From Thermoplasmatota archaeon (GTDB taxonomy: Archaea; Thermoplasmatota; E2; DHVEG-1): DNA of 64,000 nucleotides. Position 1 is the first letter of the stretch, and each line of letters starts with the position of its first letter. The stretch covers positions 157 to 64,156 of the forward strand of contig JBAZLE010000001.1 in assembly GCA_041650455.1 (NCBI GenBank). Reading direction: 5' to 3'. The translations under genes and the position numbers were made by a program. Of the stretch, positions 1,447-41,327 are shown piece after piece. The notes beneath the pieces are model-generated. The model was not told where the DNA came from. It ran no database searches and saw only the letters and a list, made by a program, of their open reading frames with translations.

Positions 1447-1564
1447 TGCAGGGGAAGGGATTTGAACCCTCGGACTCCTGCGAGACAGGATGTCTCATCA
1501 CACGAACCTTTCTTGTGTTTTGATCTTAAGTCCTGCGCCGTTGGCCATGCTTGGCTACCCCTGC
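1447..1564 (-). tRNA. tRNA-Leu(UAA) with a ~33-nt intron at the canonical 37/38 position
   Basis: The minus strand reads GCAGGGG-TA-GCC...GGC-G-CAGGA-CTTAAG[intron]A-TCCTG, then a long variable arm TCTCGCAGGAGTCC, a T-arm GAGGGTTCAAATCCCTT, and CCCCTGC-A. The acceptor stem is 7 bp, the fold is class II, and the anticodon is TAA. Confidence 0.75.
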
Positions 1565-1584
1565 AGACACATCAAAGAAAGAAG

Positions 1585-1656
1585 TGCGGACGCCGGGATT
1601 CGAACCCGGGCAAGAGGCTTGGAGGGCCTCAATCATAACCACTAGATCACATCCGC
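1585..1656 (-). tRNA. tRNA-Gly(UCC)
   Basis: The minus strand reads GCGGATG-TG-ATC..GAT-T-GAGGC-CCTCCAA-GCCTC-TTGC-CCGGGTTCGAATCCCGG-CGTCCGC-A. The cloverleaf is canonical with a GTTCGAATC T-loop and anticodon TCC. Position 33 is C, which is unusual. No CCA is encoded. Confidence 0.7.
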
Positions 1657-5259: not shown

Positions 5260-5566
5260 GCTGGGCGTAGGTGGACGGTTGACGGTGACCTTTCCGGTTG
5301 CTGAGGAAAGTCCTCTCTCACTCTGAATCAGGATCCTGCGCAAGCAGGTAAGGCGAGAGTCTTAGCAGAGGAACAGAAACGACACAGCCCTTGGATTATG
5401 CGATGATTCACCTGGTGATGAGGTCTCCTTGGGATTTGGTGAAACGGCCAATCTGCTCCTGGAGCAAGCCCAAACATCGGGATCAGTTATTCAGACTGCT
5501 CGTAGGTAGGGCGCATCAGACAAATACCGTTAAAACAGAAAGAGGCTTACGGCCTACACCCAGCAC
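5260..5566 (+). ncRNA. rnpB: RNase P RNA (archaeal rnpB, ~307 nt)
   Basis: Noncoding stretch with a CR-I GAGGAAAGTCC motif and a CR-V-like ACAGAAAGAGGCTTA motif. A GGAGCAAGCCCAAACATCGGG segment resembles the archaeal type-A consensus. P1 forms between 5260-5271 (GCTGGGCGTAGG) and 5553-5564 (CCTACACCCAGC). P4 shows compensatory covariation (5' CCTCT with 3' AGAGG, versus the usual CCGGG/CCCGG). A TATA-like TTTATAA lies ~27 nt upstream. Confidence 0.75.
5539..5566 (+). repeat. rnpB 3'-terminal 28-nt segment (attL-like copy 1 of a direct repeat family)
   Basis: AAAGAGGCTTACGGCCTACACCCAGCAC. It is identical over 28 nt to 9117..9144, and diverged copies lie at 9757 and 10923. Confidence 0.8.
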
Positions 5567-5717
5567 TTATGTTCGAATAGAAATGGATTTCTGGATTTGA
5601 GTCGTAATAATTCTATTGCATCCAAAAACGTTCGGTAAAAGATTGGTTCTGGGCTATTCCTCAGATATCATTTCGACAAGTTCAGAGATATTCTTGCTTC
5701 AATTCTAAATCTTACGG

Positions 5718-6572
5718 CTACCATGGTGGTTGAAAAACATCTACTTTTACAAGGACAGCTGCTCCTAAAAAAAATGATCCTAATTTAATTCCAGTAAAAC
5801 CAAACGCCCCTGTATAACATTTCCAGTAAAATGCCATTACAGGAAATTCAATATGACCCCATAATGAACCGTTGATTGTGTCTATTCCATTTACACCTAC
5901 AGTATATATCCAACCAGTTGACGGATAAGCACCATAACCAGGATAATTATAAAATTCATCACCAAAAGTTAAAAGACTCAAAAAATTTAGCATAGACGCA
6001 GGCGTAAAATTTTTCATTATCCAAAGAAAAAAGGTTCCCATATATAGGAGAAAAAATTCAATTCTCGAAGTGAAGAACTTCTCGAATATAATCCTGAAAG
6101 CTGAAATTACGGTCTTAGCAACCCGACAATCTTCTGCTTCTCCAGTAATCAAACAAAAAAAATTATGACAAACAGAAATCTCCGAGTTATGTATTTTATT
6201 TACAATGTTTGTTGATTTTCCATTACCAACTACTAATCTCTGTGCCCGCTCAACACTCATACCCCTCGGCAACAACCCATACTTGTCCAACTCCACCACA
6301 GCATCCTTGAACAACGGGACTGCTTCCTCCCGTGTTGATGTCTGGTTCAATCTGGCTCTGAACTCCACCAGATACTGCTCCAGGTTCTGGTATTGTTCTC
6401 TGGTGAGTTTCACCGTGGTATCCCCGTATCCTTTGATGCCGCAGGGTTGTGTGGTGACTTCCACCAGGTCATCATCAGTGGATGCTTTCGCAGTGTTGAA
6501 GTTGATAGCTGGTGCTATGGTCACACCAACGAACAAGAGAATGATTCCAATCGCCAAACATTTCCGTTTCAT
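5718..6572 (-). CDS. Secreted hypothetical protein, paralog family A (signal peptide MKRKCLAIGIILLFVG...)
   Basis: The track ORF 5718..6800 was trimmed to the internal Met preceding a classic signal peptide. It shares GLLP(R/K)GMS(V/I)xRAQRLV and GW(I/V)(Y/W)T(V/I)G(V/M)NG...PPW blocks with the CDS at 8072..8938. The region is AT-rich. Confidence 0.6.
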   Translation of the reverse strand: MKRKCLAIGIILLFVGVTIAPAINFNTAKASTDDDLVEVTTQPCGIKGYGDTTVKLTREQYQNLEQYLVEFRARLNQTSTREEAVPLFKDAVVELDKYGLLPRGMSVERAQRLVVGNGKSTNIVNKIHNSEISVCHNFFCLITGEAEDCRVAKTVISAFRIIFEKFFTSRIEFFLLYMGTFFLWIMKNFTPASMLNFLSLLTFGDEFYNYPGYGAYPSTGWIYTVGVNGIDTINGSLWGHIEFPVMAFYWKCYTGAFGFTGIKLGSFFLGAAVLVKVDVFQPPW

Positions 6573-7284
6573 TGATTTATCTCCATATCCTTGATGTTCA
6601 ATCCGATTGATGGATATATCGGCCAGCATCCCAAAACAACTAAAAGAATAAAAAAAAGATAAGCAATAGTAGAAAACAGTATGTACCAAGGTGTTATCAA
6701 TAGTAATAATAATGGAAGTTGTAAAACAAACAAATACAACTCCTCTAGAATCATAGCAGGAATGCCAAACAAAAAAAACATTAAAAATAAACTTCCACAC
6801 AGAATAGGATAAGGAAACTCTGTATTTTCATTTTCACAATCACACTCAGAATCTTTCAACTGAGTTATTTCTGCATTGAGTATTGTATTCTTTTCAATAA
6901 CTGTTGATATCTCCTTCAGCATCCCCTGATTATCGATTTGATACTTACCAAGGATAGATTGCATTCTTGATGTGCTGATAAACCTTGAAAGCATCAATCC
7001 AAGAAGATACATCTGTCTAAGCTGATTCTTCATTAACACAGGAATCTCCGATGGTGGGAATATCCCTCTGCTTATCTGGGATTTAAGAATAATTCTCTGA
7101 ATATCCTTATTATTTGCAATATCAACGATGGTCTGGAATAACAACTCTCTCTGGTTGATTCTCTCTTTGATAGTGCTCTGTTGTGAGGTCTGGACTGTTT
7201 GGTATCCCACCACAGTGCTCAACGAACCCATCACAGAAGAACCACAGCACAGAGACTTACACCAATTAATGGACGTTTATCCAT
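6569..7284 (-). pseudogene. Secreted hypothetical protein, paralog family B, with a 1-nt frameshift inside the signal peptide
   Basis: The ATG at rc 7282-7284 gives MDKRPLIGVSLCAVVLL*. After a -1 shift the other frame continues (V)MGSLSTVVGYQT..., which matches the LLVLGSLSNVVGYQT leader of 7581..8081. Inserting one G restores VVLLVMGSLS. The C-terminal half is multi-TM. Confidence 0.5.
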
Positions 7285-7370
7285 GTCTTTCCTAGCCCTT
7301 TACCGCATTTTATAACACTGTTATCCTATATAAAGAATATTCCATCCCTGATAGGTAACAACATTTGCTC

Positions 7371-7448
7371 TTACCAGCCAAAGTAATTCTTTATTATAAA
7401 TCCGATGAGAAGACCGATGAAAAAACCAAAGATCGCCCCCCATATCAT
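7371..7448 (-). CDS. Tiny hydrophobic peptide (25 aa, MIWGAIFGFFIGLLIGFIIKNYFGW)
   Basis: An AGGAGG Shine-Dalgarno sits ~11 nt upstream of the ATG. The product is a single predicted TM helix. It lies between the paralog genes of the island. Confidence 0.25.
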   Translation of the reverse strand: MIWGAIFGFFIGLLIGFIIKNYFGW

Positions 7449-7492
7449 ACTTTTTCATTCCTCCTTATGATATGATATTTCATGTCATATAT

Positions 7493-7564
7493 TTAAATGT
7501 TATTCATAACACAGGTTCCAACGAACAAGAGAATGATTCCAACCGCCAACCGTTTCCTTTTCAT
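7493..7564 (-). pseudogene. Remnant 5' stub of a family-A gene (MKRKRLAVGIILLFVGTCVMNNI*)
   Basis: The 23-codon ORF is nearly identical at protein and DNA level to the signal peptide of 5718..6572 (MKRKCLAIGIILLFVG) and then terminates. This is a signature of deletion or rearrangement within a tandem gene array. Confidence 0.5.
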
Positions 7565-7580
7565 TTGAATATTCCTTCTG

Positions 7581-8081
7581 TTATGCTCTGTTTATTATTG
7601 GAGAGCAGATTATGAATATTTTATGCCTGTATACTAATTCATTATCATAATCAACACTTACTGATAAAGGAAATATACCAATATGACCTGGCGTCATGAG
7701 TGTTGGATTGCAATGAAAGTTTGTTGCATGGGATTTGTCTGGTTCTAATATTAAATTGAATTCCCATGTATAATATTCATTTGACACTCGAGGAGTAGGA
7801 AATTGAGATAATGTAATAATCACATCTAAGTCATTGATGGTATTTATTCCATTATTTGTGATATGAATAGTTGCATTGAAATCAGAGTTTTCTATGTATA
7901 TTCTTGGGAATCTTTGTTTGTATGTAATTATGTCTATTGTAATGTTAGATGTAGCTTCTGGTGTTGGTATAGTCTGATACCCAACGACATTACTCAATGA
8001 ACCTAGCACAAGAAGAACCACAGTACAGAAACAGACTCCAATTATGAGATACTTCTTTTTCATGGCATTTCCTAGGTCCAT
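7581..8081 (-). CDS. Small secreted hypothetical protein, paralog family B (166 aa, beta-rich)
   Basis: Signal peptide MKKKYLIIGVCFCTVVLLVLGSLSNVVGYQT, which it shares with 6569..7284. AT-rich. Confidence 0.55.
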   Translation of the reverse strand: MDLGNAMKKKYLIIGVCFCTVVLLVLGSLSNVVGYQTIPTPEATSNITIDIITYKQRFPRIYIENSDFNATIHITNNGINTINDLDVIITLSQFPTPRVSNEYYTWEFNLILEPDKSHATNFHCNPTLMTPGHIGIFPLSVSVDYDNELVYRHKIFIICSPIINRA

Positions 8082-8938
8082 GGAGGACTGTATGTAAAGT
8101 TGACTTCTCTAGCAAATCCTATATAGAAACGATTTGAATCATAATCCATTGATGAGAGAAAACAAAAAGGTTGAACGCCAACGAAACCTTTGATTCCTAC
8201 AGGATCCCAAGCATCAGTGTAACTATAATTATTATACACATATTTTCTATACCTTGTAAAAAGACCCCCGTAGAATGTTCCATTCCACTTTTGTACTCCG
8301 TTCATTCCAATCGTCCAAACCCATCCTGAAGAGGAAAAGTTCCACTCTTTAGTGACATTTCCATTCTCATAGGCTATAGCTCGACTTCCAGCAAACGCAA
8401 AGGGGCCAAACTTCAAGGGGCTGAAATAACGTATTGCATAAAACCATAGAAGAAAATTTAATTCTTCTTGAAGACTACTGTTGGTTAAAAGATAATAGAT
8501 AATCGGGATATCTAATATAGTAGGAAACGGCCTAAAAATAAAGTGATTCGTCATCCCAACAACAAGACAATTAGTATTCCCCATATCGTTCCCATCACTC
8601 TCTTGAGATGGATGTAAATATTCATTTTTTAAAAAACCCATAGTAACCAATCGTTGTGCCCGCTGGATGCTCATACCCTTTGGTAACAATCCTTGTTCGT
8701 GTAATGTTACGATTGCTTCGTTGATACAAACAAGAGCTTTCTGTTTCGTTGTGACTTTTTCTAATTTTACTTTTAAATCATTGAATATGTTCTCTACATT
8801 ACTATACTGAATATTTGTATTTATCCTAGGGTGTGATGTTTGTTTCCAACTTGTTGTTGAAGAAATAGGAAAAACCGCGGTAAGTATCACCAGCATACAA
8901 ATAAGGATACAAAATAGTCCTTTCTTGATAATTTTCAT
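8072..8938 (-). CDS. Secreted hypothetical protein, paralog family A
   Basis: The track ORF 8072..9094 was trimmed to the internal Met MKIIKKGLFCILICMLVILTA, which has a GGAGG Shine-Dalgarno 6 nt upstream. It shares conserved blocks with 5718..6572. Confidence 0.6.
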   Translation of the reverse strand: MKIIKKGLFCILICMLVILTAVFPISSTTSWKQTSHPRINTNIQYSNVENIFNDLKVKLEKVTTKQKALVCINEAIVTLHEQGLLPKGMSIQRAQRLVTMGFLKNEYLHPSQESDGNDMGNTNCLVVGMTNHFIFRPFPTILDIPIIYYLLTNSSLQEELNFLLWFYAIRYFSPLKFGPFAFAGSRAIAYENGNVTKEWNFSSSGWVWTIGMNGVQKWNGTFYGGLFTRYRKYVYNNYSYTDAWDPVGIKGFVGVQPFCFLSSMDYDSNRFYIGFAREVNFTYSPPWT

Positions 8939-9116
8939 TCCTCCGTACCATTTTAATAACAGTCTTCTCATATATATAATATATTCTTTAGTAGGAAAAC
9001 AGTGATATTGTTTTATAGAGACATTTAAAGAAAAAAAAGAATGGGATTTCTCCCATAAAATCTCGCTAACGTATTCTGTTCTGAGATGTGCCATATTTTT
9101 GTGTCTCTCGGAGGCG

Positions 9117-9144
9117 AAAGAGGCTTACGGCCTACACCCAGCAC
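9117..9144 (+). repeat. Direct repeat copy 2: exact duplicate of the rnpB 3' end (attR-like)
   Basis: AAAGAGGCTTACGGCCTACACCCAGCAC, a 28/28 match to 5539..5566. It lies between the secreted-protein cluster and the RelE gene. Confidence 0.8.
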
Positions 9145-9152
9145 CTAATAAA

Positions 9153-9407
9153 TTACAATTTTTTATAGACATTTTTCCGATGATCAACGAATAGTATTGA
9201 AATTCTTTTTGTTTTTTCATCGATATCAGCGATGACCCGATAATCTCCCACGCGTAGTTTGAATTCATCTCTAGAAGTCAATTTTTCAAAATAATGAAAT
9301 GGATTTTCTTTCGTGGAATGAATTTTTTCAAAAATTCTTTTTCTGGTTTTCTTTTCTAATTTACCTAGATCTTGTAACGTTACATCATCATAAATGACTG
9401 AATACAT
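9153..9407 (-). CDS. relE: Type II toxin, RelE/ParE family
   Basis: 84 aa. The C-terminal KLRVGDYRVIADIDEKTKRISILFVDHRKNVYK fits the RelE/ParE signature (YR(v/i)iY...i.il.v.HRk.vY). Confidence 0.8.
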   Translation of the reverse strand: MYSVIYDDVTLQDLGKLEKKTRKRIFEKIHSTKENPFHYFEKLTSRDEFKLRVGDYRVIADIDEKTKRISILFVDHRKNVYKKL

Positions 9408-9410
9408 TCA

Positions 9411-9650
9411 TTAAAGCCCTAGTCGATATTTGGCTTCCTCCTCGCTGACGAAATGCCCTTTTTTAATTCGTTCTCTTGCCGCTTCTATAGCTTTGATTGT
9501 TTCTTTGCTAAGTTTTGGTTCTTTTTTTAAGTTCTTTACGATGAAAATAAGCTTTTTGATAACCTCATCATAGCTTTCATTTTTGTATTCTCGGAATTGA
9601 TCGATTTGTGATTTTGTATCACTTTGAATCTTAATGGTTGTCGTGCTCAT
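9411..9650 (-). CDS. Putative cognate antitoxin (RelB/ParD-like)
   Basis: ~80 aa, immediately upstream of the toxin with a 4-nt gap. C-terminus is EEEAKYRLGL. The start was trimmed to MSTTT. Confidence 0.55.
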   Translation of the reverse strand: MSTTTIKIQSDTKSQIDQFREYKNESYDEVIKKLIFIVKNLKKEPKLSKETIKAIEAARERIKKGHFVSEEEAKYRLGL

Positions 9651-9756
9651 AATATACCAAAATATACCTATGTATACCATAGTATAAATAATTTCCTATC
9701 AACTTATTTCTTCTGTCATATAAATTTTTTAGAAAATCGTATTTTCTCCTGTTATA

Positions 9757-9784
9757 AAGAGGCTTACAGTCTACACATAGCACC
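9757..9784 (+). repeat. Direct repeat copy 3: diverged rnpB 3'-end duplicate
   Basis: AAAGAGGCTTACAGTCTACACATAGCAC, 24/28 identical to the rnpB 3' end. It shares an extra 5' flank, TTTTCTCCTG(T/C)T, with copy 4. Confidence 0.7.
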
Positions 9785-9796
9785 TATGAATAATCA

Positions 9797-10750
9797 TTAA
9801 TATTTTTTCATTATTGTGAAAAAGCTATCATATGTTTTTTTTCCTTGTTCTAACATAAACTGGTAATAACTTTTTTTTATTTTTCTTCGTAAACCTTTGA
9901 CTATCGCATTAGAGTATGCCCTACGGTTTTTTGCATAGATAATAATAGGGAAATATCCATGATCCATGAGGATCTTATTCATAATCAATCTACCTGTTCT
10001 TCCATTAGCATCTAAAAAAGGATGAATATATTCATAATTAAGGTGAAAATCGCAAGCTAATTGAAATGGGTATTTTATTTTTTTATTATCTTTATAATAT
10101 CGAAGAAGAGTATCTAGTTCTTTTTCTACTTGTTCAGGTGAAACAGTAGGTTGATTATTTACGATATTTTCTACTGTTTTAAATCCTTTAGGATAGTGAT
10201 CTCCTCCAGACATTGTCAGATTCTCGGTAAGAATATAATACAATCTTTTAATTGAAGAGATATTAAATTTAAAACCACTTTTTAAGTATTTTAACGCTTC
10301 AATTGAATTATACACTTCTTTAACTTCATTTGTATTTTTATACCTTGAATTACCAGTTTCAATAATTCTTTTTACTTCTTTGGCAGGAATTTTTGAACCT
10401 TCAATATTGTTAGAATTAAAAATGAATTCTTTAGCAAATTCAACAAGAACAACATCTCTAATATCTTTTATTTCAAAAAAATTGCTAATTTCAATAGATT
10501 TTAATTCCATATATTCTAACAAATGTTTGTTATACACAATATCTAACCTATCTAGAAATTTTTTTCGTATCTTGAATTCTTTTTCAGTTATATTATTAAA
10601 ATTTTTTTTAAGATAATCCTTAGCATTTACTGTAGAAATATTCTTTCCAATATGTTCTTTAATTCTGAAATTTTTTCCCATAAAAGAAAATTTTTTTACG
10701 AACGATATATATTCAGTATCATTAATCTTCTTTATTTCTATATATGACAT
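9797..10750 (-). CDS. fic: Fic/Doc family protein (putative AMPylator)
   Basis: 317 aa with a canonical Fic motif HPFLDANGRTGR. The gene is extremely AT-rich (~25% GC), consistent with horizontal acquisition. Confidence 0.85.
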   Translation of the reverse strand: MSYIEIKKINDTEYISFVKKFSFMGKNFRIKEHIGKNISTVNAKDYLKKNFNNITEKEFKIRKKFLDRLDIVYNKHLLEYMELKSIEISNFFEIKDIRDVVLVEFAKEFIFNSNNIEGSKIPAKEVKRIIETGNSRYKNTNEVKEVYNSIEALKYLKSGFKFNISSIKRLYYILTENLTMSGGDHYPKGFKTVENIVNNQPTVSPEQVEKELDTLLRYYKDNKKIKYPFQLACDFHLNYEYIHPFLDANGRTGRLIMNKILMDHGYFPIIIYAKNRRAYSNAIVKGLRRKIKKSYYQFMLEQGKKTYDSFFTIMKKY

Positions 10751-10922
10751 TAGAAAATAGTATGCTCACGGGGTTTATATATTTTTACAAATTGGGCAGC
10801 AAAAAATACCACTTTTTTTACCAATACGGCACAAATCATCCATACGTCTGTTAAACAAATTATAGATTTCCAGTAATTCTGTCAAGGATTTTTTCAAAAA
10901 AATTGTGTTTTTCTCCTGCTTT

Positions 10923-10951
10923 AAAGAGCTTTCCTATCTCCACGCAGCAAC
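10923..10951 (+). repeat. Direct repeat copy 4: degenerate rnpB 3'-end duplicate
   Basis: AAAGAGCTTTCCTATCTCCACGCAGCAAC preceded by TGTGTTTTTCTCCTGCTTT. Repeat plus flank align to copy 3 plus its flank (GTATTTTCTCCTGTTATAAAGAGGCTTACAGTCTACACATAGCAC). Confidence 0.55.
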
Positions 10952-10979
10952 CCCTTCATTTTGTTCAATCTCTCTCTTT

Positions 10980-11480
10980 TTAGATCCTTCTGCGTTTCCT
11001 TGCAGTCAGGACAAGCGTTTTAATTTCTGGTGGTAATTGTTCATCTTGCCATTTTCGTTCGATTTCTGTGGATTCCCCTGCGTTTTTTACGGCTTTTACC
11101 GCATACCATGCTGCTCCTAATGCATGGTCAGCCATATGGGCTGTTGCGACCGCGTGTCCAACAGAACGAGCCACAGCACTTGCTGTCTGGTTTGAAGATT
11201 TTCGAGCAACCGCATGAGCAGCTACTGCTGCATTTCGTGCATCACCCACGGAAGCCTGCCCGTGTTTCCACGCATTCGCCAGCTTTAATGCGTTTTTTAA
11301 TCGCTCGTCTATGTTGTCCCCAAAGAGCGGTAAGACATGCTTCGCACAGTCGCAAGCCCATGTCATCAACTGATGGTGCTGTTCCTTTTTTAAGGGTCCA
11401 CCCCGATGCTCTACAATAAATCGTTTGTCTCGCATTTTGTCTTTCTCCGTAATATTCTGTGAAGTTATTTGTGTTTTCAA
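10980..11480 (-). CDS. Hypothetical Ala-rich all-helical protein (possibly immunity-protein-like)
   Basis: 166 aa. The A-rich periodic helices GDARNAAVAAHAVARKS...AVARSVGHAVATAHMADHALGAAWYAVKAV suggest a possible immunity-protein-like role. The likely true start is the internal MRDKRF. GC content is higher than that of the neighbouring island genes. Confidence 0.5.
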   Translation of the reverse strand: MKTQITSQNITEKDKMRDKRFIVEHRGGPLKKEQHHQLMTWACDCAKHVLPLFGDNIDERLKNALKLANAWKHGQASVGDARNAAVAAHAVARKSSNQTASAVARSVGHAVATAHMADHALGAAWYAVKAVKNAGESTEIERKWQDEQLPPEIKTLVLTARKRRRI

Positions 11481-11867
11481 TCACTGCTCTTGCTTTATGT
11501 GTCTTAGTAATAAATCGAAAGATGATAGGAAACGTGGTCGTTTTCTTTTTTTCTTTCACCATTAGAAAAACATTCTTTGGAACTCGTTTTAAAAAGACGA
11601 CAGTGATGCCTCTTTTATGAAGAAAAGTTATGGTTTGAACCTAGCATCAAATGAAAATCTTTCCGTTCAAGAGATGTGCCCCTAAATCATCGACGATACT
11701 ATACAGTTCATTACATCATCAAAAATCTCTTAATAGAACACATTCATCTCAAAAGAGGTGTTAGAATTTTTTATCAATGAAACCCTTATTTTTTTTATAA
11801 CATCTCAAAAATTTATTTAGCTACACAATATAGGAGATTCAAATAAAAAAAAATTATTTCATGACAT

Positions 11868-14201
11868 CTATTCATCTATTTCTAGCCTTGGAAAGGTTAT
11901 TTCGAGATAACGCTCCTTCCCATTCGGACAATTACAGGAAAACCACAGATTTCCGTTCATGCTTTGATGTCTCATCTCGGAAGCATCATCAGCGACAAAA
12001 CCCACTTGTTCATACAGAGGATCTGTACTGAATGGAAACATCTTAAACATGAGAGAAATCTCTGGGTATACACTATGCAGAATCAAAGAAAGAACACGAC
12101 CAGTCGCACCATGCATTAACAGACGAACGAACAACTCAGTAATATGTGGGTATCTCTGGAACAGCATGGAGTACCATATCATCATTCTTTCTGCTGCATT
12201 TCGTGAGATGGTTTGTGTCAGACTTAGATTGTATACATTCTCGTTTTGGCTGTTTACCCGAAAACGGGCGTTCATCCCCATCAGGAGCGGTTCATGGTAA
12301 ATAAGGTTCACCATCCCGTACCGATTTCCAGCGATGAACGCGGTGAAATTCATCACTCCATTCGTATCGCATAATACCTCTGGGGACACAGAGAAGTTCA
12401 CTTGTTCATTTTCACTAAGAGGTCCCGTCATGTTGTACCAATGACCGCTTAAATAGAGATGGAAATCATCCGTCGTATCACTTGTTCGTTGCCGTTTCAC
12501 ACTAAACAACGAGACATCATACTCAGCAGCATCCAAAAAATTCAATACCCCCTGTAAAAACCACGCATTCGTGTCGTCTGGAACCGTGTAAAAACCATGA
12601 ATCGTCTCATACGATGATCCAAAAATATGAGAAAAGACTTGGGATTCACTCCCAGAAAGTACGCTGTATTGGGAGCGAGTTGTCCAGTCGCAACAGCTGA
12701 CGTTCATTACCACTCTTCCGGTCCCAGAGGTACATCGAGCAGTCATGGTGAAATTGTAGGTCTGACTAGGAACAGCAATAGAAATCGTCCCCATAGGAAA
12801 CGACTGGTACGGTTGCCCGCTCCGCCCATCCTCCTGGATAGAGGTATTATCCGGATATTTCTCGGGAAATGTAAGATTCGTAGGTCCAGAGACGTGCATC
12901 CCTGGGCGGGTCCACTGAACGTTGCCGGAGTGATCGTTCCCAAATCCAAGGATGTTTTCATGTGCAGAACCTGGAGGTGATTCCATACGTGCATCAAAAA
13001 ATAGCTCCATAGGGGCTGTACCAATCAGTTGAAGCGTGATGTCTGGAGATAATATTTTCATATCGGTGAGCTGTGTTTCATTATCCTGCAGAAAGATTGG
13101 AAACGAATACCAATTCTCAGCATCAGGATTAAAAGATGTCGGGACCATCCATGAATGACGATATTCCGGCGCCCAATGGCCACCCGCGCCATTGTTCTCC
13201 CAGCTCGCTGTGATAATGCCTGTGGAAGAAATATTGTAAATCACCACTCTGTCTAACTCATGCCGATAGTGCCAATCCATTTGCGGATAGGGCGAGGAAA
13301 ACGCGATTTCATGTCCAAATGTTCTGATCGGGTTCGTCAGTCCGGTGCTCTGGTTACTCACGTACCAGTCAAGCCAATGGTTATGACCATGGATCCACAG
13401 TGTAATCTGCGGGTTGTTCTGAAACAAGCTCGCCCACCAGTCCATATCCTGCTTCCCACGATATGGCTTCAAGCTTTTCTCCTTTGTGGTGTCCTCGATA
13501 GCCTGATGACAAAGGATCACGGTCGTTGTCGTTGGGTACTGGTTCGTCATATATTCGATCCATTCATATTCAACAGGGTGCGTCCACGTCACATATCCAA
13601 GTTCTGGGACAACCAGAAAGAGTATCCCCTCGTACATCATCGCATATACCGGAGCGTTCATACTGAGTTCGTCAATCAATGTTTTCGTAAGATTATGTGG
13701 GTCTCCGCTGTTCATCTGATAATCAGTCACATCATGGTTACCCACCACATAATAAAAAGGCAGATTCAGATGAGAAATCAAATATGCTTTCAAATTATTC
13801 CTATACTGATTAACAATCCAAGGAAGTCCTTCCCCATGCACCTGCGCGGTGTTATGGTTCACGATATCACCCAGATGCACCACAAAATCAAGCCTATTAG
13901 TCGCATCAACCAGATCCTTTCCAAGTTGATCCAGATGATCAGCGATATCATAAAAAGGATTTTGATATTTGGCGCCAATATGTGTATCAGAAAATGCTGC
14001 AAAGCTCAAATAACTATTTTGTAAAGCGATTCTCTCTCTTCTATCAATTTTCGATGTATCCTCAGAGAGCAACACTGATCTATCATTCATTATTATTCCA
14101 CTGGCTGTTCCCTTCGAATTGATATTTGGTATTATCATGATTAAAATAGAACAAAAAAGGAATCCCGTACAAATTACGACACTCACTATTTTCTTTTTCA
14201 T
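11868..14201 (-). CDS. Secreted calcineurin-like metallophosphoesterase with a large C-terminal extension (777 aa)
   Basis: Signal/TM N-terminus. Metallophosphatase motifs GDIVNHN, VVGNHD and IHGHNHW are present. The C-terminal ~350 aa have no recognised domain. Confidence 0.8.
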   Translation of the reverse strand: MKKKIVSVVICTGFLFCSILIMIIPNINSKGTASGIIMNDRSVLLSEDTSKIDRRERIALQNSYLSFAAFSDTHIGAKYQNPFYDIADHLDQLGKDLVDATNRLDFVVHLGDIVNHNTAQVHGEGLPWIVNQYRNNLKAYLISHLNLPFYYVVGNHDVTDYQMNSGDPHNLTKTLIDELSMNAPVYAMMYEGILFLVVPELGYVTWTHPVEYEWIEYMTNQYPTTTTVILCHQAIEDTTKEKSLKPYRGKQDMDWWASLFQNNPQITLWIHGHNHWLDWYVSNQSTGLTNPIRTFGHEIAFSSPYPQMDWHYRHELDRVVIYNISSTGIITASWENNGAGGHWAPEYRHSWMVPTSFNPDAENWYSFPIFLQDNETQLTDMKILSPDITLQLIGTAPMELFFDARMESPPGSAHENILGFGNDHSGNVQWTRPGMHVSGPTNLTFPEKYPDNTSIQEDGRSGQPYQSFPMGTISIAVPSQTYNFTMTARCTSGTGRVVMNVSCCDWTTRSQYSVLSGSESQVFSHIFGSSYETIHGFYTVPDDTNAWFLQGVLNFLDAAEYDVSLFSVKRQRTSDTTDDFHLYLSGHWYNMTGPLSENEQVNFSVSPEVLCDTNGVMNFTAFIAGNRYGMVNLIYHEPLLMGMNARFRVNSQNENVYNLSLTQTISRNAAERMMIWYSMLFQRYPHITELFVRLLMHGATGRVLSLILHSVYPEISLMFKMFPFSTDPLYEQVGFVADDASEMRHQSMNGNLWFSCNCPNGKERYLEITFPRLEIDE

Positions 14202-14579
14202 AGACTCAAAACTTAACCATGATTATTATAATATATTTGTTATTTATCAGTTTATATCATTTATTGCTAACTACGAGAAAATCAACATTTTTAGTAGTTT
14301 TTCAGTTTTTCATCTAGATCTTTCATCTTCTCTTGATGTCAAAAGTTGTGGTTTTTCCCTCTTACACCAGATTTGTCGCCTAAACCTGTCACTGCTAGGC
14401 AAAACAATATAAAGGGAAGAGACGTATATCTCTATATTAAGGGAATAGAGATAAAAATTTCACATTTTTGTTAACCCAAACGTATGAGATTTTTTATTTT
14501 TGTTCTTTCACACCGATTTTCAGCGTGAACGCTGGAGCTGTAAAAAAATCTGGAAAGAAAGATACGGGATGGATTTGAT

Positions 14580-28910: not shown

Positions 28911-31016
28911 TTATTCTAATTTCGTCGTGCTGATTCCACTGTCATCTTCTAGAATTGATATTGTATTTTCCGTGAAATGTTTTATGTCTTCGACATGGGT
29001 GATGAGGAAGATCTGTCTAAATTTCGAAGAATAATTATTCAGCGCTTTGATGATATTTTGTTTCCGTATTTGATCCTGAGAACCAAAGATTTCATCAAGG
29101 ATGATGAATTGAAAGATACTCCCTGCGCGTTCGGTAATGATCTCAGAAATCGCCAGTCGAATGCAGAGGTTTGCAAGGTCTTCTTCTCCACCAGAAAAAC
29201 GTTCTATGGTGTATGGTGCTCCCCGATCATACACTAATAGATTATAATCTTCATCTAGCTCTATTTGTGAGTATTTTCCCTCTGTTAGTTCATTAAAAAG
29301 TTCTGAGGCATGAGATGAGAGTGTCGGTCGTATCTGGGAGATGAGGTATGTACGGTAGGAATCCATTACTTCGATTAGCATACTGAGTTTTTGTACGTCG
29401 TCTGTTTCGCTATGAAGTTTTTTAAGGAGCCTTTGTTGTTCTTCAATGTTTTTTTCTAATGTTTTTATTTGTTGCCCGATCAGGTTTTTTTTTCCTTCTT
29501 TTTCTTTTAACTCTACCATGACTTCCTGATGTTTCTCTTTAATGCCATCAAGTTTGGATAACATATGCTGATAAATTTCATATGCAGTGGTCACACGGTT
29601 TCGTATCTGCTGATACTGTTTTTCGTCAAAGTCGACAATACCAATGGTTATCAGTTCTTTCTTTTTGTTTTCTAACTGTTGTTTTTCTCGCTGAATCTCT
29701 TCAGAGCTATGAAGAAGAAAACTTTGGAGTTTCTCCCGTTCGACGACTTGATTTTGTAGAAAGCTCTTCTTTTTCTGCAACGCTTGTTTTTCTTTAGAGA
29801 GTTTTTCGTATTCTAATTGCAGTTTTTTTGCTTCTTCGTCAAATCGTTGTGCGTCATGATTCTTTTTTGTGAGTTCCTTACCATAATTCATAAGAAGTGT
29901 CTGATGTTGCTGTCCAAGTACACGTTCACAGGTTGGGCATTTTGCTTGTGGCCCTATTGTTTCAATTTGGTGCTTTTTTGTTGTGATTTCTTTCATCTCC
30001 TCCTTGAGACGATAGAGGAGCGTTTTGTTGTGTTCTTGTTTTTTTACAATCGATTGAATGAAGATTGTATTTTTCTCCTGATTCTGTTCATACGAATGTA
30101 AATCTTTTTCCAGATTCTTAAATACAGGGAGTTTTTCTTTCTGTTTTTCCAAGATTTCTTGTCGTTCTTTGATTGCTTTTTCCAATGCTGTTATATCCGT
30201 TTGAAGACGTTGTTTTTTTTCAAATCTGCTTTTCTTTTCCTCGAGTTGCCCAGCGGTTTTGTAGAGTTCCTCGTACGAGAGTTTTTTTGTTTCGCAGTCT
30301 TTTTTTGTTTTAACATGTTCCTCATCAATTCTTTGAAGATGTTTTTTACTCTCTTGTATGTGTTGCATGAGTTCTGTTTGTTTTTTTTGCTGATTTTTGA
30401 TTTCGATTTCGTAGACATTCTTTTTGTTTTGGCCTTGTTCATCAACAAGATTCTCTTCGAGTTTTTTAACAAGTGTGTTCTTGTCTTTTGTATCTGTTCT
30501 AATCTCACTGATGATTTCATCGACTGCACTGATTCCAAGCATACGCAGAATAAGTTGTCTACGTTCACTTGGGTTCATAGAGGATAACGTGTTCAGTTCC
30601 TTTTGTTTAGCAAAAATCGATGTGTAGAACGATTTCCAGTCCATCCCTAGTGTTTTCTGCATAAACTTGCTAAGAGTTTCTGCGCCGCTTGCTGCAAGCT
30701 TTCCGTTGACAGTCGCACTGCCTGATGCTTGAAGGTTTTTTCCACTCATCTCTCGAACGACATGGTAGATGTCATCATCGAAGATGAAATCAAGTTCAGT
30801 CTGGCAAGGCTCAGATGGTGCTGCCCCTTCTCGTTTAATTTGGTTCGTCGCTGTCCGGGCTGCGACAGGACCATAAAGTGTCCATGCCACTGCTTCAAAC
30901 AAGGTTGATTTCCCAACACCATTCAATCCAACAACGCCTGTGACCCCATCAGGAAACTCAATGGTGCTGTCTTTAAATTTACGGAAGTTTTTCAGCCGAA
31001 TTGATTTTAGGATCAT
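28911..31016 (-). CDS. rad50: Rad50/SbcC-family DNA repair ATPase (short form, 701 aa)
   Basis: Walker A GLNGVGKST, zinc-hook CPTCERVLG within a coiled coil, and C-terminal signature and D-loop FSGGEEDLANL...ILDEIFGSQD. Confidence 0.85.
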   Translation of the reverse strand: MILKSIRLKNFRKFKDSTIEFPDGVTGVVGLNGVGKSTLFEAVAWTLYGPVAARTATNQIKREGAAPSEPCQTELDFIFDDDIYHVVREMSGKNLQASGSATVNGKLAASGAETLSKFMQKTLGMDWKSFYTSIFAKQKELNTLSSMNPSERRQLILRMLGISAVDEIISEIRTDTKDKNTLVKKLEENLVDEQGQNKKNVYEIEIKNQQKKQTELMQHIQESKKHLQRIDEEHVKTKKDCETKKLSYEELYKTAGQLEEKKSRFEKKQRLQTDITALEKAIKERQEILEKQKEKLPVFKNLEKDLHSYEQNQEKNTIFIQSIVKKQEHNKTLLYRLKEEMKEITTKKHQIETIGPQAKCPTCERVLGQQHQTLLMNYGKELTKKNHDAQRFDEEAKKLQLEYEKLSKEKQALQKKKSFLQNQVVEREKLQSFLLHSSEEIQREKQQLENKKKELITIGIVDFDEKQYQQIRNRVTTAYEIYQHMLSKLDGIKEKHQEVMVELKEKEGKKNLIGQQIKTLEKNIEEQQRLLKKLHSETDDVQKLSMLIEVMDSYRTYLISQIRPTLSSHASELFNELTEGKYSQIELDEDYNLLVYDRGAPYTIERFSGGEEDLANLCIRLAISEIITERAGSIFQFIILDEIFGSQDQIRKQNIIKALNNYSSKFRQIFLITHVEDIKHFTENTISILEDDSGISTTKLE

Positions 31017-40436: not shown

Positions 40437-41327
40437 TTATTCAGCAGATTCTTCTTTCTTTTTCTTTGCTGTTTTCTTCGTGGTCGTTTTCTTCTTGGTG
40501 GAAGATTTTGCTTTTGTTTTCTTCTTTGGTGTCTCTTCCTTTTCCAAGTCCTCAGCGGTCAGTTCTTCTTCAATCGGTTCTTCTTTTTCTTCTGAGGTTG
40601 CCTCTTTTTCTGGTTGTTCTTCGGTCAGTTCTTCTTCCGAGGGAACTTCTGATTCTTCCGAGCTTGGTTCTTTTGGTTGTTCCTCTGGTTTCTCTACTGG
40701 TTCTGTTGGTTTTTCGTCTTCGATGATTACGGTCGGGAGGCGAATGATTTCTGTTTTATTGACCTCGATACGTTTCACGGGGTAGTAAATCTTACAGTGT
40801 TTGTAGATTTCGCTGCCGGTTTTTCCATCCAGGCAGTCTTTGATAAAGGAATTGAGTGTTTTCGCTTTTCCTTCTTTGGTGATGACCTCATTCATGACGT
40901 CCCTGATGAGTTTCTTTTGTGAGCTTTGAATTCGTTTCTCGGCGATCGCGAAGGGTTTTACTCGCAGGAGCGCGCCGTCCCTGGTCTCCACGTCGAAGAC
41001 CCCGTCAACACGGGACTTTCTCCGTCTGATCATCCGTCGGAGGTAATCTGAGGTGAGCAGATGACCTTTCAGTTGGGTATGTGCCGTGTTCTGTTCGATT
41101 TTATCGATGGAAAAGAGCAGTTTAATATGAGATTTCCGAAAATCATTGGTGATGTCTTGAAGGGACACTTCGGTGACTCTGCCAATGAGGCTTTCTGGTG
41201 TCTCTGCTAACGTCTCAGCGACCGGGACATTATTGAATAAGGATGGTGCGAGTATCGTGTACCAGTTTTTTGCTTTCCATCGGTCTTTGACTTTTCTGGT
41301 TGTCGTGCGTGCACGTGCTTTGGCCAT
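40437..41327 (-). CDS. rps3ae: Ribosomal protein S3Ae (eS1) with a ~100-aa highly charged E/K/P-rich C-terminal extension
   Basis: MAKARARTTTRKVKDRWKAKNWYTILAP... is a canonical S3Ae N-terminus. The tail is EDEKPTEPVEKPEEQPKEP...KKKTKAKSSTKKKTTTKKTAKKKKEESAE. Confidence 0.85.
   Translation of the reverse strand: MAKARARTTTRKVKDRWKAKNWYTILAPSLFNNVPVAETLAETPESLIGRVTEVSLQDITNDFRKSHIKLLFSIDKIEQNTAHTQLKGHLLTSDYLRRMIRRRKSRVDGVFDVETRDGALLRVKPFAIAEKRIQSSQKKLIRDVMNEVITKEGKAKTLNSFIKDCLDGKTGSEIYKHCKIYYPVKRIEVNKTEIIRLPTVIIEDEKPTEPVEKPEEQPKEPSSEESEVPSEEELTEEQPEKEATSEEKEEPIEEELTAEDLEKEETPKKKTKAKSSTKKKTTTKKTAKKKKEESAE

Follow-up and report, generated by a model that had tools for sequence, protein, structure and literature searches.

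Genes for stable RNAs, such as tRNA and tmRNA, are classic landing pads for integrating elements. In archaeal elements at tRNA genes, recombination by a tyrosine integrase takes place in the 3′ portion of the stable RNA gene, and duplicated gene fragments bound the captured DNA; She et al. reportedly described such integrative plasmids and viruses in 2001, along with 'gene capture' by integrases. Cis-mobilizable elements (CIMEs) are integrase-less, att-flanked segments that gather beside an integration site, where the integrase of a related element can mobilise them. Those of streptococci are bacterial, linked to conjugation and a few kilobases or longer, with usually one or two per site. Site-specific accretion of streptococcal ICEs and CIMEs has been reviewed (PMC5704250). 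In Dehalococcoides, several ssrA-specific genomic islands lie in tandem downstream of a structural RNA gene that is present in one copy, each bounded by a 20 bp direct repeat of the gene 3′ end and with a conserved motif upstream of each repeat; about half of these islands lack an integration module, and the integrase adjoins attL on the reverse strand (McMurdie et al. 2011, PMC3146451). A role of rnpB, which encodes RNase P RNA, as an attachment site was not reported in the literature that could be searched, an absence that is not proof, and the rnpB papers followed up use the gene only as a phylogenetic marker.

The region described here lies in a 64-kb window (the whole stretch of DNA that was analysed) from an uncultured Thermoplasmatota archaeon, and probably belongs to an accretion array of small integrated cassettes, 6-9 kb long, at the 3′ end of a single RNase P RNA gene. 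This archaeal gene (5263-5561, plus strand), the 3′ end of which serves as the integration target, is full length and matches Rfam RF00373 with 165.7 bits over model positions 1-288 of 288. The Rfam match and a comparison of the repeats identify the intermodule repeat as the final 28 nt of this gene, a link that was not made in an earlier, sequence-only reading of this stretch. The repeats are thus att sites that stem from the RNase P RNA gene, and as copies of its last 28 bases they identify the modules between them as small mobile cassettes piled up where elements integrate.

All copies of this repeat, referred to as cores, lie on the plus strand. Copy 1 (5539-5566, AAAGAGGCTTACGGCCTACACCCAGCAC) is located at the gene end, and copy 2 (9117-9144) is identical to it at 28/28 positions, followed by copy 3 (9756-9783) at 24/28 and copy 4 (10923-10950) at 19/28. 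Copy 5 (core ~11621-11648) retains ~19/28 with gaps and copy 6 (core 14365-14392) 16/28, such that core identity drops with distance from the gene. The repeats are genuine and far above chance, with local alignment scores of 59 and 41 for copies 2 and 3 against a shuffle maximum of 26. Copy 4, with only 19/28 identity, is still matched at E 9e-9 by a type A arm+core profile (10872-10949); all such profiles (nhmmer) were built only from sites at other loci. Copies 5 and 6 are each marginal by themselves (P ~0.02-0.04), with a profile E of 0.038 and a shuffle P of 0.03 for copy 5 and a shuffle P of 0.02 for copy 6. Copy 5, with its decayed type C arm (11549-11648 together), is recognisable mainly through better-preserved orthologous sites at other loci, and is homologous to the arm and core that bound Imm5 cassettes in L059, L033, L079 and L085. 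The stretch 14300-14392 is tentatively assigned as a decayed type A arm with core copy 6 from its alignment to orthologous sites in L116 and L115, after which the conserved chromosomal flank GCAAAACAATATAAAGG follows.

Every downstream core is preceded by a conserved "arm" of 45-70 nt, of which there are at least three types. A type B-like arm (9058-9116, plus strand) precedes copy 2, and the type B arm+core profile matches 9058-9144 with an E-value of 4e-13. The type A arm before copy 3 (9692-9755, plus strand) contains TTCTGTC, an AT-rich stretch and TTTTCTCCTGTTAT, and is matched together with its core at 9692-9783 (type A profile, E 7e-16); the partly decayed type A arm of copy 4 (10872-10922, plus strand) can be aligned with it. 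The arm type tracks the left-hand cargo and not the right-hand cargo. Arm conservation spans ~100 distinct sites, and arm orientation is constant whichever way the cargo points.

An empty version of the site is present in the Thermoplasmatales archaeon SM1-50 (L006), where the RNase P RNA gene is directly followed by a phosphoesterase gene 324 nt away. The alignment between the window and SM1-50 breaks immediately after ...CCCAGCAC, the same point just after which identity ends between the window RNase P RNA gene and the ~95% identical genes of two relatives, and the block from 5567 to ~11650 is absent at the syntenic SM1-50 site. At the DNA level, the right junction of the window is too diverged from SM1-50 to align informatively; in L017, the DNA returns to the native flank once the last core has ended, with 79 nt sharing 88.6% identity (E 8e-25) with the DNA directly 3′ of the SM1-50 RNase P RNA gene. 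In one MAG (L005), no RNase P RNA follows the syntenic gene, which made it unusable for comparison. In genomes of this lineage, contigs frequently stop at the RNase P RNA gene, ends for which repeated cores and variable arrays would account. Cassette content varies among more than 100 related metagenome loci, and this variation and the SM1-50 empty site agree with the earlier proposal that Fic and RelE modules are accessory; the RelE, Fic and immunity-like genes of the window are all accessory and absent from the syntenic site.

The first module (5567-9057, minus strand; core-to-core interval 5567-9116, 35.9% GC) contains four ORFs on the minus strand (5718-6800, 6569-7234, 7581-8081 and 8072-9094), whose products are predicted to be membrane or secreted proteins; the last ORF probably starts near 8971. 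None of the four matched a Pfam family, and the paralogue family c66 of this module is also cassette cargo in L123.

Between copies 2 and 3, the second module encodes a toxin-antitoxin pair. The toxin (9153-9407, minus strand, 84 aa) belongs to the RelE/ParE superfamily, matching Pfam PF05016 ParE_toxin with an E-value of 3e-9 and 37.7 bits against a cut-off of 23; its closest solved relatives in the PDB are of RelE type (2khe, Rv2866 and aRelE 1wmi), and 8 nt separate its stop codon from core 2. Immediately upstream in the same operon is a small antitoxin-like protein of the uncharacterised DUF7557 family (9411-9650, minus strand, 79 aa; Pfam PF24434, E 3.6e-8). The mechanical ORF extends over 9411-9680, however the true start is likely 9650, giving 79 aa as in most relatives; among 15 homologues mapped in related loci, six have 79 aa and six have 89 aa. 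These matches support the RelE/ParE toxin with a small upstream antitoxin that had been suggested from the sequence, with the gap from antitoxin stop to toxin start measured as 3 nt and not 4 nt. The pair co-occurs in 12 cassettes, and is a putative addiction or stabilisation module. The whole cassette is 93% identical to one in L087, where the match begins exactly at core 2 and ends exactly at core 3 and the DNA outside is unrelated; identity limited in this way by the two cores upholds the idea that one module per repeat reflects independent acquisitions.

The third module carries a gene for a 317 aa Fic protein (9797-10750, minus strand; Pfam Fic, E 7e-16), identified as a class II, FICD-like AMP-transferase. 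Class II Fic proteins are defined by an N-terminal inhibitory helix with the motif (S/T)xxxE(G/N) in the same chain. The protein aligns to FICD with an E-value of 2e-19, placing its SNNIEG in the same chain opposite the TVAIEG inhibitory motif of FICD. Its catalytic motif HPFLDANGRTGR aligns to HPFIDGNGRTSR of FICD and agrees with HxFx(D/E)GNGRxxR, the first G being A in this protein. The motif is thus intact and the ORF has a GC content of 24.5%, both as the sequence-only reading had described. The protein also matches PADLOC PDC-S04 (3e-35) and SoFic (4e-22), and its gene stands alone without a partner gene. This Fic, class II and autoinhibited, is a candidate enzyme for single-gene defence or for AMPylation. 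Homologues form at least 120 clusters at 61-100% identity, which do not indicate the foreign donor lineages that a BLAST search had been expected to reveal: eight of the nine named clusters are from Thermoplasmatota or Thermoplasmata, and the remaining one, a partial protein, comes from a MAG that carries the label Actinobacteria. Distant homologues with 63-70% identity occur in three loci (L125, L127 and L128) without cores and without RNase P RNA, and the Fic family is therefore not tied to the RNase P array system.

Beyond copy 4, the Ala-rich protein that had been thought possibly immunity-protein-like is indeed Imm5-like (10980-11435, minus strand, ~151 aa, within the mechanical ORF 10980-11480), matching Pfam PF21805 Imm5_like with an E-value of 2.7e-42 and 144 bits against a cut-off of 25 over profile positions 3-128 of 129. 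No cognate polymorphic toxin gene lies beside it, as the Imm5-like gene is the only non-overlapping ORF listed between copies 4 and 5, suggesting an orphan immunity protein. The description of each module as repeat-bounded and very AT-rich holds only in part for this one, since its GC content is 43.7% versus 42.7% for the window and its far-side boundary is only the decayed fifth copy (~11549-11648). The Imm5-like gene is a core-bounded cassette in L059, L033, L034 and L085. The next gene encodes a 777 aa calcineurin-like phosphoesterase (11868-14201, minus strand; Pfam Metallophos), the one that comes directly after the RNase P RNA in SM1-50. It is flanked in L116 by a perfect core on one side and a good type A arm and core on the other, and in L115 by a decayed one, and is probably an old, fixed cassette. 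Compared with known RelE/ParE, class II Fic (FICD, SoFic) and Imm5-like families, the cargo of the window gives family matches above curated cut-offs, and differs in its DUF7557 antitoxin, in a Fic without a partner gene and in an Imm5-like protein without a toxin gene.

Across metagenomes, at least 118 loci carry 209 cores (~200 sites) in arrays of up to six. For the 100 core-to-core intervals, the median length is 935 nt and the median GC 0.32, and at least 30% of them hold toxin-antitoxin pairs. A distant XerA-like tyrosine integrase is located beside a core in 16 loci (L040, L095 at 391-1566, L110 at 188-1237 and L083 among them), in eight of these within ~1 kb of the RNase P RNA 3′ end; the family matches Pfam Phage_integrase (5e-12) and has a conserved R..K..HxxR..H..Y pattern. 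Complete core-bounded integrase elements, in the four loci with both bounding sites visible, measure 4.2, 4.2, 7.3 and 13.5 kb, and one integrase element carries ParB and Cdc6/Orc1 genes and looks plasmid-like. No match to the 24-mer core was found in IMG/VR viral contigs, and no excised circle or attP-type junction was observed.

We infer both the acting integrases and the position of the crossover. XerA-like integrases, encoded by elements that occupy this site in related genomes, would recombine the core of a circle with the core at the gene end, regenerating the RNase P RNA gene and pushing the earlier core downstream. Repeated rounds would stack cassettes, leaving the oldest and most decayed cores farthest from the gene. 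No integrase was found in the 64-kb window (tblastn best E 0.36; profile best E 0.069), and mobility there therefore needs an unseen helper. The window modules would be miniature derivatives without an integrase, excised and re-integrated in trans, as they are still moving as units. We read the window as an integron-like accretion array mobilised in trans, which would make it a variant of the process by which islands accrete in tandem at genes for structural RNAs.

An alternative that we consider unlikely is that full-size elements inserted serially at the RNase P RNA gene and were deleted down to one or two selected genes, leaving immobile remnants. The lack of an integrase in the window and the decay of core identity away from the gene are both consistent with such fossils, as are the c11/c12 genes, found between the RNase P core and an integrase in L053 and L117 yet bounded by cores as a cassette of 0.8-1.0 kb in L108, L109 and L123. 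This cassette type seems to derive by simple deletion from an element with an integrase, and some cassettes may therefore be fossils. Cassettes shared between genomes (72-93% identity) show divergence that is not clearly below that of their hosts, with RNase P RNA too conserved to serve as a clock, and most cassette copies may be old residents. However, four cassette pairs with 93-98% identity have unrelated flanks, the near-identical ones (97-98%) spanning 1.1-1.5 kb between unrelated neighbours, and identity breaks exactly at the cores. Cassettes are also uniformly compact, with 54 of 100 shorter than 1 kb and, in the inspected cassettes that carry ParE, Fic or PIN genes, stop codons no farther than ~10 nt from the core, and strong conservation of the arms in ~100 sites is unexpected for inert remnants.

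It is far less probable that the array is an integron or CALIN, in which an IntI integrase acts on attC-bounded cassettes in the form of folded single strands. The architecture is similar, with a fixed chromosomal entry point, compact cassettes that each have their own recombination site, shuffled cassette order between genomes and common toxin-antitoxin and defence-type cargo, and integrons have been reported in Archaea (Ghaly et al. 2022, PMC9668308), in a paper, however, that mentions neither RNase P nor Thermoplasmata. Here the sites are conserved in sequence and not in structure: neither strand of the arm+core sites before copies 2-5 folds as single-strand DNA better than shuffled controls (z -1.5 to +0.7), giving no sign of attC-like hairpins, and the core is the end of an RNA gene, consistent with double-strand att sites. 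The array begins at that RNA gene and not at IntI, the cargo occurs in both orientations across arrays and is not co-oriented under a common Pc promoter, and the integrases of this lineage reach 56 bits against the NCBIfam XerA/integron-integrase model, which has a cut-off of 220. Least credible of all, and already largely refuted, is an origin without recombination, as dispersed regulatory, terminator or REP-like elements or slippage duplications of the gene end: the arms, read in gene orientation, do place AT-rich, TATA-like stretches upstream of minus-strand cargo, but they keep their orientation even with plus-strand cargo such as HicBA and c30, integrases directly adjoin the sites, the core is the exact point at which empty sites diverge from filled ones, and cassette-to-cassette identity breaks at the cores.

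The trans-mobilised accretion array that we favour resembles the Dehalococcoides islands in its stacking at an RNA gene, gene-end repeats, extra upstream motif, units without an integration module and, where an integrase is present, its place beside attL on the reverse strand. It differs in its archaeal host, in targeting RNase P RNA instead of tmRNA, and in a tyrosine recombinase where those islands use a serine recombinase. The units are also smaller (median 0.9 kb versus ~12 kb for vcrABC-bearing islands), mostly consist of one gene or one toxin-antitoxin pair, and have arms of 45-70 nt in three or more types. As with CIMEs, integrase-less att-flanked segments accumulate at an integration site, however here as many as six sub-kilobase cassettes line up in one array, and conjugation genes were not seen. 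In contrast to archaeal elements at tRNA genes, those described here target RNase P RNA, their integrase gene stays in one piece on integration, and the captured units are ordered arrays of miniature cassettes.

A broader reading, which we hold to be about evenly balanced between right and wrong, is that uncultured Thermoplasmatota (relatives of SM1-50) possess a convergent, integron-like cassette platform. Arm+core sites of ~75-100 nt may play the part of attC while being ordinary double-strand att sites, and diverse XerA-like integrases, one of them on a plasmid-like element, may service cassettes in trans. The outcome would be a common pool of sub-kilobase cassettes for toxin-antitoxin pairs, defence and secreted proteins, in which cassettes are shuffled. 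The site is a fixed 28 nt, and amplification or searching between cores is therefore a simple way to mine the accessory genes of a sediment lineage that is abundant and uncultured, while the natural pairs of integrase and att site could become genetic tools. If true, this platform would represent a second, mechanistically different route to integron-like cassette arrays, in Archaea.

Rfam detects a complete archaeal RNase P RNA gene on the plus strand at 5263-5561 (165.7 bits), and the repeat described in the sequence-only reading is the final 28 nt of this gene region, AAAGAGGCTTACGGCCTACACCCAGCAC (5539-5566), referred to here as the core. The core recurs at 9117 (28/28), 9756 (24/28), and 10923 (19/28); local alignment scores are 59 for copy 2 and 41 for copy 3, against a shuffle maximum of 26. 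Copy 4 matches poorly when only the core is compared, and reaches E 9e-9 together with its upstream arm, the conserved 45-70 nt preceding a downstream core, using a profile made solely from sites of other loci. Homology to relatives, whose sites at the corresponding positions are better preserved, led to two decayed copies, one to the right of the Imm5-like gene (copy 5, arm and core around 11549-11648; E 0.038 with the profile, P 0.03 against shuffles) and one to the right of a phosphoesterase gene (copy 6, core 14365-14392; 16/28, shuffle P 0.02). Core identity to the gene end drops with distance, at 28, 28, 24, 19, about 19, and 16 of 28.

The surrounding window codes for TFIIB, ABCE1, and further archaeal core genes, and its contig is listed at NCBI under a Candidatus Thermoplasmatota MAG. 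Relatives of the gene upstream of the RNase P RNA occur in three MAGs. In Thermoplasmatales archaeon SM1-50, the RNase P RNA is followed by 324 nt and then by an orthologue of the window phosphoesterase gene (11868-14201); the two RNase P RNAs are about 95% identical, and their alignment breaks down directly after ...CCCAGCAC. This gene order and the position of the break show that the block 5567-~11650 was inserted at the RNase P RNA gene's 3′ end. The 79 nt past the last core of metagenomic locus L017 share 88.6% identity (E 8e-25) with the DNA directly after the SM1-50 RNase P RNA, and represent the expected attR and native flank.

Several observations concern the neighbourhood of the array. 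The calcineurin-like phosphoesterase (777 aa; window 11868-14392 together with copy 6) appears chromosomal in SM1-50, but in L116 (1033-3622, flipped) it lies between a perfect core and a well-kept type A arm with core; it is probably a former cassette that has become fixed. In 'Methanobacteriota archaeon bin_19' (L005, 11563-16100), the gene that elsewhere precedes the RNase P RNA is followed by genes for a multi-HTH protein of 443 aa and a protein with pentapeptide repeats, and by a fragment of an IS240-type transposase, and the RNase P RNA gene is absent from this 19.5-kb locus. At window 1447-1656, a tRNA gene with a 118-nt insert (Rfam tRNA, 40.7 bits; missed by ARAGORN) adjoins tRNA-Gly(TCC), a pair kept in 3/3 related MAGs. 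Very strong negative AT skew (-0.38 to -0.51) occurs at 29500-30500, where GC is also low, and at 40500-41000.

The ORFs named in the sequence-only reading are all present on the minus strand. The proposed RelE/ParE toxin with a small upstream partner is borne out by an 84-aa RelE/ParE-superfamily protein (9153-9407; Pfam PF05016, E 3e-9), whose closest solved structures are RelE-type (2khe, Rv2866, and archaeal RelE 1wmi), and a DUF7557 protein (9411-9680; E 3.6e-8). The gap between antitoxin stop and toxin start is short as described, measuring 3 nt rather than 4. DUF7557 homologues in related loci are 79 aa (6/15) or 89 aa (6/15) long, and the true start may therefore be 9650. The 317-aa Fic protein (9797-10750; 24.5% GC; Fic match E 7e-16) aligns best with human FICD among solved structures (E 2e-19); its catalytic stretch HPFLDANGRTGR, noted earlier as intact, lies over FICD HPFIDGNGRTSR, and SNNIEG over the inhibitory TVAIEG, which makes it a self-inhibited Fic of class II. 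Candidate defence families in PADLOC are matched as well (PDC-S04, 3e-35; SoFic, 4e-22). The Ala-rich protein thought possibly immunity-protein-like (10980-11480) is indeed Imm5-like (E 2.7e-42).

The description of every module as very AT-rich holds for the toxin-antitoxin (29.6% GC) and Fic (25.4%) modules and fails for the Imm5 module (43.7%) against 42.7% for the whole window; module 1 (5567-9116) has 35.9%. The proposed search for donor lineages revealed no evident foreign donor for Fic. Homologues at 61-100% identity form at least 120 clusters, of which 106 have a length of 317 aa; nine clusters bear an organism name, and this is Thermoplasmatota or Thermoplasmata in eight, the other being a partial protein labelled Actinobacteria. 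Remoter Fic homologues are located in other accessory contexts. A Thermoplasmatales MAG with a distant Fic homologue carries a 95-aa Phage_integrase fragment overlapping a tRNA gene (L128, 18625-18966), the signature of a split-integrase (SSV-type) element; archaea of this class thus have another integration system besides.

A search of JGI metagenomes with a degenerate 28-mer identified at least 118 loci with at least 209 cores, mismatches allowed. RNase P RNA gene ends account for 43 of the listed cores; the others are stand-alone fragments, frequently arrayed in groups of three to six, and many matches fall at contig ends (among the matches listed). The core-to-core intervals, at least 100 among the matches listed, have a median length of 935 nt (54 <1 kb, 84 <2 kb), and the 100 listed have a median GC of 0.32. 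Toxin-antitoxin pairs occupy at least 30 of these 100, including ParE with DUF7557 (12), ParE with a 72-aa partner (7), HicB/HicA (7), and PIN with a small partner (4); Fic occurs in five, and further recurrent cargo comprises Imm5-like proteins, a MarR-like regulator with a small partner, several unknowns, and secreted proteins. In seven loci (L007, L034, L038, L051, L098, L109, and L121), the array or integrase begins where 30 nt of the RNase P RNA 3′ end are repeated, 8-10 nt past the stop of a hydrogenase maturation protease (HycI-like) gene (e.g., L098 178-659, flipped), with no RNase P RNA gene nearby; this copy may be a second anchor site or a product of rearrangement between cores.

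All cores away from the RNase P RNA gene are preceded by conserved sequence of few types. Type A consists of TTCTGTC, about 25 AT-rich nt, and TGTTTTTCTCCTGTTGC (48 distinct sites among the matches listed), type B of TTACGTCTTC, a spacer, and TTTT.CAGGAGTGAT (39 distinct sites, likewise among the matches listed), and type C, CACCATCAAGGAC...GAACTCGTCTTAAAGACGAAC..., runs into the core at TTACGG. In the window, profiles assign copy 2 as B-like, copies 3 and 4 as A, and copy 5 as C. Arm orientation is constant whether cargo lies on the minus (ParE, Fic, PIN, Imm5) or plus strand (HicBA, c30), and the arm therefore belongs to the site, not the gene. Arm type tracks the left-hand cargo and bears no relation to the right-hand cargo: among the matches listed, all ParE/72-aa cassettes have type A or A-like arms and all MarR cassettes type B, while Imm5, c92, and c61 cassettes have type C. 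The mobile unit is thus cargo, arm, and core. The window sites fold no better than shuffled sequence on either strand and in this respect are unlike integron attC sites. The hexamer CTCCTG occurs in type A and B arms in opposite orientations, and an inverted repeat flanks the core at L030 5845 and L123 6060 (flipped coordinates), its left half being TTTTTCTCCTGTT and its right half AACAGGAGAAAAA, in what resembles a pair of type A arms pointing towards one another.

There is evidence that the small modules are fossil in origin: in L053 and L117 the c11/c12 pair has the RNase P core on one side and an integrase on the other, but it forms a stand-alone cassette in L108, L109, and L123, which points to internal deletion of integrase-bearing elements. 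Against a purely fossil state, an all-against-all comparison seeking near-identical interiors with unrelated flanks recovered a c37/c51 cassette (L017 and L102; 97.2% over 1536 nt), a Fic cassette (L017 and L079; 97.1% over 1134 nt), and a ParE/72-aa cassette (L075 and L102; 98.4%, left flank unrelated), and cassette types shared across genomes vary between first, second, or later array positions. The window toxin-antitoxin cassette is 93.3% identical to L087 over 608 nt between unrelated flanks, from the first base of core 2 to the last base of core 3, upholding the earlier view that one module per repeat reflects independent acquisitions. Cassettes would arise as miniature derivatives and, we infer, then still be moved in trans.

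A candidate for this activity is absent from the 64-kb window, where no integrase gene of the family recovered from relatives was found. Clustering of all locus ORFs identified this family (340-390 aa; at least 16 loci among the matches listed), which has hits to Pfam Phage_integrase (5e-12) and to integrase families of PHROG and is distantly XerA-like (56 bits vs. a cut-off of 220; PDB 4a8e, 9e-7), with the pattern R..K..HxxR..H..Y kept among members just 18-28% identical. The gene is directly downstream of and convergent with the RNase P RNA 3′ end in L040, L083, L086, L095, and L110, and <1 kb from it in L053, L106, and L117. Where an element has a site at either end, its length is 4.2 kb (L053, L060), 7.3 kb (L110), or 13.5 kb (L032); L095, with additional genes that are ParB-like, a Cdc6/Orc1 fragment, and Shedu-like, has the appearance of an integrated plasmid.

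Among documented systems, the nearest is that of the Dehalococcoides tandem ssrA-specific islands, in which the tmRNA gene end is repeated over 20 bp, every repeat has an additional conserved motif upstream, and only half of the islands contain an integration module (McMurdie et al. 2011, PMC3146451). Accretion and the cis-mobilizable elements of streptococcal ICEs (reviewed in PMC5704250) share their logic with this array, and integrons share its architecture but differ in site type and integrase; the archaeal integron report makes no mention of RNase P or Thermoplasmata (Ghaly et al. 2022, PMC9668308). No description of RNase P RNA or rnpB as an attachment site was found in the literature searched, although reports elsewhere are possible. 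The original observation is confirmed and its interpretation supported in sharper form: the array is best classed with the tandem, site-specific accretion seen at stable-RNA genes, as a variant that differs from known cases in its new target, the RNase P RNA, its archaeal host, and its unusually small, integron-like cassettes with conserved arms.
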